DNA of 64,000 nucleotides from Eledone cirrhosa (Eukaryota), in contig OZ024745.1 in NCBI GenBank assembly GCA_964016885.1, positions 124,434,001-124,498,000 of the forward strand, read 5' to 3'. The notes under the pieces were generated by a model. The model did not search any database. It was given only the letters and a program-made list of their open reading frames with translations, and was not told where the DNA came from. Position 1 is the first letter of the stretch. Each line of letters starts with the position of its first letter. The position numbers and the translations under genes are program-made. Positions 4,929-63,599 of this stretch are shown piece by piece.

Positions 4929-5223
4929 CAAAGAAGATATCGTTACTCGATAAAACATGAAAACCAGCGTTATGTAACAACACTCGCAGACAATGCTTGG
5001 CAGCTGCGTGAAAATAACCAACAATTTCACCTAAAATGGGATATAATACCGGCTGCCCCCCCCCATATCCCATGGACAGGAATTTTGTAGATTATGTAAT
5101 GTAGAATTATTTTGTATTATGAAATCCAAAGACATTTTATTAAATAACAGAATAGAGCGATCGTTATACTGTAACCATCGCTTAAAATCTACATTTTCAT
5201 ATTATAAATACTACCAGGATTGA
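4929..5223 (+). mobile_element. Penelope-like element GIY-YIG endonuclease C-terminal fragment (Neptune-like), frameshifted
   Basis: Translates QRRYRYSIKHENQRYVTTLADNAWQLRENNQQFHLKWDII, then after a poly-C shift FCRLCNVELFCIMKSKDILLNNRIERSLYCNHRLK*. This matches the PLE C-terminal pattern W.L......W.I...C.LC..E...LLN.R.E...C.H. Confidence 0.75.
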
Positions 5224-8323: not shown

Positions 8324-8359
8324 TCTTCTGATGAAGGACTAGCGTCCGAAACGTTAAGA
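8324..8359 (+). ncRNA. Minimal type I hammerhead ribozyme (PLE-type)
   Basis: tctt-CTGATGA-a-ggac-tagc-gtcc-GAAAC-GTT-aaga; stem III is the palindrome ACGT. Confidence 0.8.
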
Positions 8360-8949: not shown

Positions 8950-9661
8950 TCATGGTTTTTGATTTAGGCACAAGGTTGGAGGGAAAAGCTAACCACGGTG
9001 GGATTTGAACTCTGAACGTAAAGACCAGCAAAATAATGGTTTTTGATTTAGACACAAGGCCAACAATTTTTTTGGTGGGTGGAGAAAATCGATTAAATCG
9101 ACCCCAGTGTGTGACTTACTTTATTTTATAGAGCTCGTAAGGAGGAAAGGCTAAGCTAACCTCGGCGGGATTTGAACTCAGAATGTATAAATCAGCAAAA
9201 TAATGGTTTCTCATATAGGCACAAGGCCAACAATTTTTTGCGAGAGAAAAGTCGATGAAATTGACTCCAGTGCGTGACTGGCGCTTTATTTTATCGACCC
9301 CGTAAGGATGAATGGCAAAGTTAATCTCGGCAGGATTTGAACTCAGAACGTAAAAAGCAGCAAAATAGTGAGAATGATTCACACATAACTCACCATTTGA
9401 AACTATGACTAAGCTATCTTTAAAAAAATAATGATTTCTAGTATAGGCACAAGGCTAGTAATTATGGGGGACGGAAAAGTCGATTAAATTGACACCAGTG
9501 TGTGACTGGTGCTTTATTTTATCGACCCCGTAAGGATGAAAGGCAAAGCTAGCCTCGGCGGGATTTGAACTCAGATGTAAAAAGCAGCAAAATAGTGAGA
9601 ATGATTCACACATAACTCCCCCATTTGAAACTATGTCTAAGCTATCTTTAAAAAAATAATG
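8950..9661 (-). mobile_element. Tandem cluster of 5'-truncated Meta-SINE copies with a duplicated unique flank
   Basis: Four gggatttgaactc B-box blocks each followed by cagcaaaa; about 9270-9432 is repeated at 9510-9661. Confidence 0.8.
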
Positions 9662-9734
9662 AAAACTCTAATCACAAGAGAATATGTACACTAGCACACT
9701 GCTCCATTAGTTACGCTGACAGATAGCGTTGATC

Positions 9735-18712: not shown

Positions 18713-19276
18713 GGTGGTGGATTGGCAGTATTGGTAGAGGGTTGGACGCCATGCTTTCCAACATAGTTACGTCCCTTTATGATCTGAGTTCAAATCCCGC
18801 CGAGGTTGACGTTGCCTTTCATCCTTACGGGGTCGATAAAATAAAGTACCAGTAATGCACTGGGTAATTGCTGGACTTGTGCCTAAAGTAGAAACAATTA
18901 TTAGTAAACAGTATCGGTAGAGGGTCGGACGCCATGCTTTCCAGCATAGTTACGTCCCTTTACGATCTGAGTTCAAATCCCGCCGAGGTTGACTTTGCCT
19001 TTCATCCTTACGGGGTCGATAAAATAAAGTACCAGTAATGCACTGGGTTATTGCTGGCCTTGTGCCTAAAGTAGAAACAATTATTAGTAAACAGTATCGG
19101 TAGAGGGTCGGACGCCATGCTTTGACGCATAGAGTTACGGCCCTTGCTATACTGAGTTCAAATCCTGCCGAGGTTAACTTTGCCATTCATCCTTACGGGG
19201 TCGATAAAATAAAGTACCAGTAATGCACTGGGGATTTGCTGGCCTTGTGCCAAAAGTATAAACAATTATTAGTAAA
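18713..19276 (+). mobile_element. Tandem trimer of Meta-domain SINE
   Basis: Three ~180-bp units joined by attattagtaaacagtat; attattagtaaa also flanks both ends (18695-18706, 19265-19276). Confidence 0.9.
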
Positions 19277-56107: not shown

Positions 56108-56515
56108 TGTAGAGGGTCGGACGCCATGCTTTGCAGCAAAGAGTTACGGCCCTTTATGATCTGAGTTCAAATCCCACCGAGGTTAACTTTGCCTTTCATC
56201 CTTACAGGGTCGATAAAATAAAGTACCAGTAATGCACTGGGTAATTGCTGGCCTTGTGCCAAAAGTAGAAACAATTATTTTTTATCAAAGAAGGGCGGTG
56301 GATTGGCAGTATCTGTAGAGAGTCGGACACCATGCTTTCCTGCGTAGCGTTACGGTCCATTACGGTCTGAGTTGAAACGCCGCCGAGGTTAACTTTGCCT
56401 TTCATCCTTACGGGGTAGATTAAATAAAGTACCAGTAATGCACTGAGGCCGATTTAATCGACTTATTCCCTCCCTCCAAATTGCTGGCCTTGTACCTAAA
56501 TCAGAAACCATTATT
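56108..56515 (+). mobile_element. Two adjacent Meta-domain SINEs
   Basis: Copies at about 56108-56278 and 56293-56515. Confidence 0.88.
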
Positions 56516-56629
56516 TTTTATTTAAGAAAAAAAATTACAGGTTTCCCTTTTAAAATATTATTTTATTCTGTCTAGTTTTCGTTTGTCTTGTTTTCCGTCC
56601 TCATCTTTGTTAAGTGTCTTAAATTCATT

Positions 56630-56900: not shown

Positions 56901-56960
<60 letters not shown>

Positions 56961-57659
56961 AAATTTCGCTCTACATGGCTGAATACAATAAATGTAATCT
57001 GAGTCTTTCGAATATTTATAATAACATTCGATTCGTTTGCAATTATGCAAACAAGCCTCAATTTTATAGCCATGTTAGTAGAATAAACACTTCATTCTTG
57101 CTCTTGTGTTGGCATGCGAACAGAAATGCAGGCACTAATGTTTCTGGGTATCACCCTTCATCAGTACAGTTCACTGTTCAACTGCCTAACTGTCAGAGCT
57201 AGTGAAAATATATGCTATTTTCAAAAATACACAGTGACTGATCGGCCTCATTTGCATATTAGCAGACCCACTGATCAGCCAGATTTGCATATCAGCAGAC
57301 TGCCCAGTCAGCTTCCTGTATACGAGCGATAAATGGCCGGCTTTGCCAAATTCAAATAAAAAAGAAAAAGTTTCGCTCTACATGGCTAAATATATGTAAT
57401 CTGAATAAATGTAATCTGAGTTTTTCGAATATTAATAATAACATTCGATTCGTTTGCAATTATGCAAACAAGCCTCAATTCTATAGCAATGTCAGTAGAA
57501 TAAACACTTCATTCTTGCTCTTGTGTTGGCATGCGAGCAGAACTACAGACACTAATGAAGTGTTCATTCTACTGACATGGCTATAACATTGAGGCTTGTT
57601 TGCATAATTGCAACCGAATCGAATGTTATTATTAATATTCGAAAAACTCAGATTACATT

Positions 57660-57661
<2 letters not shown>
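56961..57661 (-). mobile_element. PLE-type insertion: ~408-bp partial tandem plus inverted segment in (TA)n, with hammerhead at 57125-57170
   Basis: tttcgctctacatgg recurs at about 56963 and 57371; 57555-57661 is inverted. Minus strand actgta-CTGATGA-a-gggt-gat-accc-a-GAAACA-ttag-TG(C/T)C-tg(c/t)a. Confidence 0.8.
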
Positions 57662-57717
<56 letters not shown>

Positions 57718-57926
57718 GTTGAAAATTGCAAACTTGACTGTCACTACTGAATTTGAACCTGAAGATTGCGAAAGCATGAGGTACTTGTTCAATTAATATT
57801 TAACATTTAATATTCTACCATAATATTTCATTATAATTTTAAAGGATTGTAAATAAAACGAGTAAAACAGACACAGTTGGAATTCTTTTTATTAATATAA
57901 TCTTCTATACACAACCATACACACCC

Positions 57927-57974
<48 letters not shown>

Positions 57975-62821: not shown

Positions 62822-63057
62822 AACGAAGGAATTGTGGAAGGAACCAGATGGACCATAACGCACCAGAGTACTCAATACTTAGGGTAGTAGAGTGGGTAAT
62901 GGGAAAAAGTATGACCCCGATGGCAGAGCTCAAGCCGTTTCGACGGCTATTTCTGGACTAAATTAGAATTATTTCACCAGGCGAAAAATTCTAATTTAGT
63001 CCAGAAATAGCCGTCGAAACGGCTTGAGCTCTGCCGTCGGGGTCATACTTTTTCCTA
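62822..63057. mobile_element. 'AACGAAGG' family element, longest inverted form
   Basis: Arms of ~70 bp around atttcaccaggcgaaa, plus an 80-nt tail at the left end. Confidence 0.9.
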
Positions 63058-63599
63058 TAAATATATATATATTTAAAAAGACCGAAAAGAATGACTTCAC
63101 TTGTAGTTCTAAAAAAATTAATTAAATTATAATATTATGATTTGGTAGATCAAGTAAGTTCTTTGTTACTTTCGGTGGGAAGATTTTTAAAGAATCCTGG
63201 TTAAGTTTCCTGGAGAAAGGTTATTTATTGAAATAGAACCAGCAGGAGGGCACTTTTACAACGCCTTTCTAAAATAGTCCTTCACCACTGCTAATCAATT
63301 ATCTTTCAGTATTATTAAGTTACCATTCATTATTTTCTGTATACATACTGTATATATGCTTTAATTTCTTTAAATCTTCATCAGCACTCCTTCACTCCCA
63401 CACTCATTAACCCCCTCCCCTCTTGCCCCAGACACACGCAGATCTCTCTTATATATAGAGTCACACATCACAACACAACCTAATCTCAGTTTGACAATCA
63501 CCACCGACGAATGCGAGAAAATTCTCCAGGAAAGTTGCATGGGTTAGACAGGTTGTCCTATTGTGGGCAGTGTCCAGTCGGTTGACCTTGTCTTGCTCA

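Follow-up and report, generated by a model that had tools for sequence, protein, structure and literature searches.

The element at 56957..57661 of the analysed stretch of Eledone cirrhosa DNA (64,000 nucleotides, hereafter the window) is very probably one decayed insertion of an abundant hammerhead repeat of 405-407 bp without an open reading frame (ORF), that is a non-LTR retrozyme, which was likely copied into a (TA)n tract by the enzyme of a Penelope-like element (PLE). Units of this family follow each other head to tail across an ORF-less junction and carry a hammerhead motif with cross-family covariation; their copies terminate at two end sites in TA targets, and their 5' ends pile up at the predicted cleavage position. 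The element class and the PLE footprint have already been published and the 407-bp family is ordinary in kind, while a description of this particular family was not found in the openly readable literature, supplements aside.

The element consists of 1.47 tandem units in minus-strand sense plus an inverted arm of 108 nt and is bounded by (TA)n on both sides (Table 1). An earlier note, made from the sequence alone, had recorded about 1.5 tandem units of ~408 bp, an inverted piece of ~107 bp lacking the terminal ~28 nt and flanking TA tracts, and this outline is borne out in all three respects. The long arm covers 595 reference nt; the tandem period, 407 where the unit begins, rises to 417 past a 10-nt duplication in unit 2; and the direct repeats at 56987-57140 and 57404-57557 are 94% identical. 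The inverted arm (57554-57661), which is 94-95% complementary to the long arm, ends 28 nt short of 56961 and ~32-37 nt away from the actual outer end (near 56957); the element is flanked by TA tracts at 56917-56955 and 57663-57707. Unit 1 matches the family majority at 96.4% identity, whereas the three 310-bp units of the hammerhead element with which the note had compared this copy are identical to each other. Thus, the 407-bp copy is indeed the older one. Two hairpins recur beyond this family: the one with the (ATT)n loop is retained with a compensatory change, as judged by eye, in a sister retrozyme family, and hairpins like the small GC hairpin are found at the corresponding position both in the 310 unit and in the sister family.

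Table 1. Features of the 407-bp hammerhead element and its flanks (window positions; RNA sense of the units is the minus strand).
Feature	Position	Strand	Remarks
(TA)n target tract	56917..56956	.	3' (distal) end of long arm
Full unit	56957..57363	-	407 bp; RNA sense = minus strand
One-sided 'tail'	56957..56988	-	spans proximal to distal end sites
Hairpin with (ATT)n loop	57008..57031	-	directly before proximal end
Type I hammerhead	57123..57172	-	core 57164-57158; helix II 4 bp; helix III near-palindromic
Candidate snRNA-type promoter block	57207..57290	-	motif matches only
TATA-like box	57207-57214	-	predicted start near 57184
PSE-like core	57234-57242	-	
Two octamers	57283-57290, 57250-57257	-	in 33-bp repeat
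Small GC hairpin	57335..57347	-	few bases beyond distal end site in tandem template
Partial upstream unit	57364..57557	-	about 190 nt; 10-nt duplication near 57389-57419
Inverted second arm	57554..57661	+	108 nt; proximal end site reached, without tail
4-nt microhomology	57554..57557	.	head-to-head junction of arms
(TA)n target tract	57663..57707	.	outer end of inverted arm

A search of the genome (3.0 Gb) with the unit, run as a check on whether it is repeated elsewhere, yielded 3,675 first-look candidates, and the 40 that were scored are 89-95% identical to it; the unit thus exists in thousands of copies. Two further genome searches added loci, giving 84 distinct loci after removal of 6 duplicates. 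From 7 insertions in 657 kb not selected for the family, the copy number is estimated at ~32,000 (95% range 13,000-66,000), a value that is biased upwards, as just 200 kb of the 657 kb are random and hold 1 insertion. Units are 405-407 bp long and low in GC, and 30 copies differ by 1.7-6.7% from their majority. A scar of RNA editing was looked for and rejected, A>G and T>C being balanced among the copies (136 vs 127, p 0.54). Multimers of the unit had been anticipated: tandem copies are indeed dispersed through the genome, but long multimers or arrays are absent from the 84 distinct loci, in which arms mostly span 1.4-1.8 units and the longest reaches ~2.2 units.

Most of these copies share the two-armed design. 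A head-to-head junction is present in 61 of the 84 distinct loci, mostly with an overlap of 0-7 nt, and the outer ends fall on two sites ~30-37 nt apart and continue into TA, the (TA)n flanks being judged by eye from printed flanks, without a background count. In each of the 49 scorable two-armed copies, one arm carries the proximal and the other the distal end, leaving a one-sided tail of ~30 nt (28 copies one way and 21 the other; scored by eye, with 13 two-armed loci, mostly with a broken end, left out). DNA contigs from sequencing runs confirm the TA-joined ends as well as the tandem joints. The same combination of a partial tandem, a 5' inverted copy, a one-sided tail of 30-40 bp and (TA)n targets is described for endonuclease-bearing PLEs in the available text of Craig et al. 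2021 (PMC8557442). Moreover, as far as the accessible account of Frangieh et al. 2024 (PMC11167929) goes, a PLE protein uses two adjacent internal start sites in vitro and extends both strands, which fits the two-end pattern of the 407-bp family. The mechanism that this element was proposed to share with the 310-bp unit is not new, but corresponds to the published PLE footprint.

The hammerhead core with GCC at the cleavage triplet, which the note had assigned to unit 1, was confirmed on the minus strand at 57133-57131, placing the predicted cut between 57131 and 57130. As GCC replaces GTC and helix I contains a mismatch, the ribozyme of this copy is predicted to be inactive. Unit 2 does preserve GTC (57550-57548), as had been stated, but it retains just the last 10 nt 5' of the cut and its ribozyme is incomplete. 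The family majority has a complete core with GTC, that is the consensus is a full hammerhead as claimed. Among 107 copies that read through the site, 85 keep the full core; the triplet is GTC in 89 and GCC, a minority variant, in 6, and dead ribozymes are not evidently enriched. Neither the best 150 of 287 Rfam matches to the window nor 7 local matches (E <= 10) include a hammerhead family, and the ribozyme call therefore rests on motif, pairing and covariation. Within the 407-bp family the helices pair in 94% of cells and covariation is absent, as expected for young, neutral copies. Three families were aligned, with 7 copies of the 407-bp family, 7 of the sister family and a single 310 unit (8 distinct rows from three lineages); in this alignment, 97.9% of helix cells pair as compared to 24-46% in slid controls, and both partners change in 7 of the 12 pairs. 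As the rows stem from three lineages only, the count from shuffles does not amount to a probability. Fold prediction for the monomer favours a misfolded state with the core paired to loop III (-16.4 kcal/mol) over the active fold (-10.2 kcal/mol), and self-pairing of helix III between two copies is predicted at -8.8 kcal/mol. On these models, cleavage as a dimer or with the assistance of a protein appears likely. In one published test, 8 of 9 predicted Xenopus retrozyme dimers were not cleaved (bioRxiv 10.64898/2026.07.22.740005).

Many arms start where the ribozyme is predicted to cut. In one search set, 9 of 27 long arms begin at positions 237-240, the cut lying just before 239, which is an excess at p about 5e-9 relative to a flat spread and at 0.006 relative to the nearest 30 nt. 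This set comprises 28 distinct new loci minus L157, whose arm starts one unit earlier; its query began at the cut, which selects arms reaching that far and should not favour stopping there. The pile-up is weaker in two sets that were not anchored at the cut, where the 97 arm starts include 8 at 238-243 (p 1e-4 vs the whole unit, but only 0.017 vs the local 41 nt). In the printed junctions, foreign or inverted sequence directly adjoins the base that follows GTC. Alignment of DNA contigs to the ribozyme region displayed no loose end at the cut among the matches listed. The evidence that cut RNA served as template for the arms starting at the cut is good but indirect, and the RNA was probably cut in the living animal, as many other copies of the family begin exactly at the predicted cut. 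The ribozyme site is read through in 96 of 137 matches; thus, templates left uncut or religated are no less frequent than cut ones. The copy at 56957..57661 is a case in point: its long arm stops 6-10 nt upstream of the predicted cut, and its template was accordingly uncut or religated there.

It is conceivable, if doubtful, that the same element and the same enzyme used a different template, namely a circular monomer, closed by ligation, that was read for more than one turn. In that case, arms would begin at the cut because circles were nicked or copying stalled at the ribozyme helix, and not because the RNA was a linear multimer. Animal retrozymes accumulate as circles, and copying from these has been proposed (PMC7229834, available portions); the frequent read-through of the ribozyme site and the many arms that begin upstream of the predicted promoter start also agree with this scenario. 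However, circles could give long arrays, yet no arm in the 84 loci exceeds about 2.2 units, and seven junctions start exactly at the first base 3' of the cut and not at the base of the helix, which lies about 20 nt away. Since genomic sequence cannot tell an uncut from a religated site, the circular template is a variant of our preferred explanation and not fully exclusive of it.

The preferred explanation, a non-LTR retrozyme mobilised by a PLE enzyme, draws on the coding content of the unit. In 27 of the 30 loci of the first search, the arm passes from the tail directly into the next unit with no ORF in between, so that the template was an ORF-less tandem. Head-to-tail units without an intervening ORF identify a non-autonomous element, i.e. 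a non-LTR retrozyme, rather than an LTR stub; of the two options 'retrozyme or pLTR' offered by the note, the former is retained and the latter abandoned. A six-frame translation of one natural copy contains no frame of more than about 60 codons from Met across the junction, and a 57-codon frame found there is regarded as chance. It is improbable that the copies are instead pseudo-LTR stubs of an autonomous PLE, truncated on the 5' side before its ORF was reached. Their tandem, inverted and tailed geometry is identical to that of PLEs (PMC8557442), and PLE copies are mostly truncated, with hammerheads that in many cases occur as single motifs (PMC8557442; PMC4209133). Nevertheless, an autonomous element would place its ORF between successive tails, exactly where the next unit follows here, and none of the examined PLE loci shares the unit sequence. 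The unit may possibly have arisen by deletion from a parent PLE.

PLEs are numerous in the genome, with 10,597 GIY-YIG candidates, including some with Neptune-type linkers. The unit was compared by blastn with 30 GIY-YIG loci, with 20 long-frame regions and with 41 loci from the Hydra search, a small part of the candidates. No autonomous PLE sharing its sequence emerged from the 49 GIY-YIG loci and the 41 Hydra-search loci examined; the only matches are separate copies of the 407-bp family or of its sister. A young tandem PLE of the Hydra type (L306, G000:C1:437199000-437208900; L307) has a period of 3,531 bp, ends in TA and encodes an intact 784-aa frame with DKT and CxCX5C motifs; the canonical hammerhead pattern has no match inside it. 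Pfam recognised GIY-YIG in just one of three Hydra-type fragments, and weakly (E 0.027). The clade names are assigned from motifs, in part those given in PMC8557442. PLE remnants also occur in the window itself. At 57715-57945, a Neptune-type PLE has left a 3' stub, which is 79-87% identical to the 3' ends of six PLE loci, carries a mutated minimal hammerhead and shares the right-hand TA tract with the 407-bp element; 62900-63060 is a head-to-head junction of two 3' ends of the Hydra-type family of L306 and explains an Rfam mir-2363 match; and 4938-5220 is a decayed endonuclease fragment.

A repeat generated at the DNA level, i.e. a satellite fragment or fold-back DNA element with an incidental hammerhead-like motif, would agree with the lack of a hammerhead among the listed Rfam matches and with a minimum-energy fold that differs from the ribozyme fold, but is most unlikely, as compensatory pairing across families around an invariant core, nucleotide-exact starts at the cut, variable 5' but fixed 3' ends, and strict tail complementarity can only arise from an RNA template.

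Upstream of the ribozyme, the unit carries a candidate promoter of the snRNA type, in which a PSE core and a TATA-like box stand at host spacing and point to a start ~20 nt before the ribozyme core. The snRNA promoters of the host (L161-L250) fall clearly into two classes: those of U6 combine an octamer-like word (-76 to -78) with a TATA box at -30, and those of U1/U2/U4/U5 combine AATTA near -89 with an ATCAGT core around -57 and a TATA-like box. A conserved 3' box completes the design. Scored with a matrix from 17 host promoters, the unit reaches 13.9 bits, at the low end of true promoters (13.3-27.8), with a background of 7.8e-5 per site, or ~3% for any site on the sense strand of the unit. 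The upstream AATTA word, present in all 17 host promoters, is absent in the unit, which has the octamer repeat instead. In the 84 loci, no arm starts at the predicted transcription start. The sister family retains the promoter-like block. The PSE-like motif lies 76 nt upstream of the ribozyme core, and the best site in the 310 unit (10.9 bits) has the same -76 offset. A match of the unit to the snRNA 3' box (11.6 bits, background 4e-5) was dismissed as weak; it is absent in the sister family, as judged by eye, and not at the matching place in the 310 unit. Likewise, a Pol III cassette, suggested by the U6-like octamer together with the T-run found at the distal end, was rejected as source of full units because tandem templates must cross several T4-T6 runs.

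The sister family numbers 3,028 candidates and was first met in a random locus (L098:938-1200; L251-L275). It has the same module order as the 407-bp unit, and its own unit apparently has a TA/TG microsatellite inside, which separates the tail from the proximal end. This family bears on the statement that the 407-bp unit is unrelated to the 310-bp unit and represents an independent family. At the level of alignment, the units are indeed unrelated (local score 26 vs 27.7 +/- 4.2 for shuffles), and direct homology was discarded. Independence holds for the sequence, but the two units share the 76-nt offset of the PSE-like motif, and the sister ribozyme bridges theirs by joining the helix II of the 407-bp unit with nearly the helix I of the 310 unit. 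In addition, the units are weakly alike in colinear order (p 0.012 for the segment from promoter to core, p 0.078 for the tail segment), which is suggestive only, as the shuffles were crude. On account of these three features, a distant kinship of the two units may exist.

Both families are also targets of an abundant SINE-like repeat, which has inserted repeatedly into the loop of the (ATT)n hairpin (corresponding to 57008-57031; e.g. loci L009, L014, L019, L023, L026 and L029). In the 84 loci, 18 of 55 SINE 3' ends map to this site, with different 5' truncations and copy-specific duplications, and the loop of the sister family is struck in about 7 of 25 loci. These insertions fit the general ATT target preference of the SINE. 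Tandem SINE-like copies at 56108-56528, 18726-19276 and 8985-9662 of the window apparently result from repeated insertion of the SINE into its own target duplication. Hammerhead-like cores of other families are present at 8328, 13192 and 26198, the last type recurring in many loci, and random DNA from the same genome contains about 18 hammerhead-like motifs per 200 kb.

Taken together, we propose that tandem copies would be transcribed from the internal snRNA-like block or by read-through from the host, giving RNA longer than one unit, some of which the hammerhead would cut after GUC. The PLE protein would nick both strands of a TA tract, and one cDNA would be primed at the proximal site and another at the distal site, ~30 nt further. 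Joining of these cDNAs head to head at a short microhomology would create the long arm, the inverted arm and the one-sided tail, and arms reaching the end of a cut RNA would start exactly at the cut. A wider reading, which we consider evenly balanced as a whole, is that the copies form a genome-wide fossil record: the hammerhead cut germ-line RNA, the PLE enzyme copied the linear cut RNA from both sides of the break, and the 407-bp unit, its sister and the 310 unit constitute a related group of self-transcribing retrozymes with an snRNA-type promoter at a fixed distance before the ribozyme. If so, PLE-type hammerheads would have a role, which the literature available to us leaves open; their function is called unclear in the consulted part of PMC8557442. 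The partnership of retrozymes and PLEs, in turn, has been proposed mainly from co-occurrence and pLTR similarity. Thousands of copies provide countable footprints, that is complementary ends and starts at the cut. With these and a young intact Hydra-type protein in the same genome, both questions become testable.

Among known systems, the metazoan non-LTR retrozymes are closest, for which the available text of Cervera and de la Pena 2020 (PMC7229834) and of bioRxiv 10.64898/2026.07.22.740005 proposes co-occurring PLEs as mobiliser. In common with these (PMC7229834; Li, Clavereau and Pollet 2026; each in the parts available), the 407-bp family has a non-coding tandem unit of a few hundred bp and low GC, within the ~150-450 bp head-to-tail range of non-LTR retrozymes, and it has one type I hammerhead per unit, a dispersed distribution at high copy and co-occurring PLEs. 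It differs in having mostly 1.4-1.8 units per arm instead of long arrays. Two-armed inversions, tails, cut starts and an internal promoter are not described for metazoan retrozymes in the available parts of PMC7229834 and bioRxiv 10.64898/2026.07.22.740005. Unlike the endonuclease-bearing PLEs, whose footprint the family shares (PMC8557442, PMC11167929), the 407-bp element has no ORF.

The ribozyme resembles the PLE-type hammerheads, as presented in the available sections of Cervera and de la Pena 2014 (PMC4209133), in the unpaired base between positions 9 and 10.1, the G10.1-C11.1 pair, and a short helix III with a near-palindromic loop suiting dimer cleavage. It departs from them in a helix II of 4 bp only, with an A.A mismatch at the base, in a long, extended helix I, and in the predicted pairing of loop III with the core of the monomer. 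A hammerhead repeat with an internal snRNA-type promoter has a precedent in newt satellite 2, for which Pol II transcription from such a promoter was reported (PMC2220036, on Coats, Zhang and Epstein 1994, as far as available); the corresponding block of the 407-bp unit, a candidate by motif match, differs by mixing a host U6-type octamer with a U1/U2/U4/U5-type core and lacking the AATTA word. Finally, in the available text of Frangieh et al. (PMC11167929) ribozyme cleavage was dispensable in vitro and Anolis had no reads ending at the cut, whereas many copies of the 407-bp family begin precisely at the predicted cleavage site.
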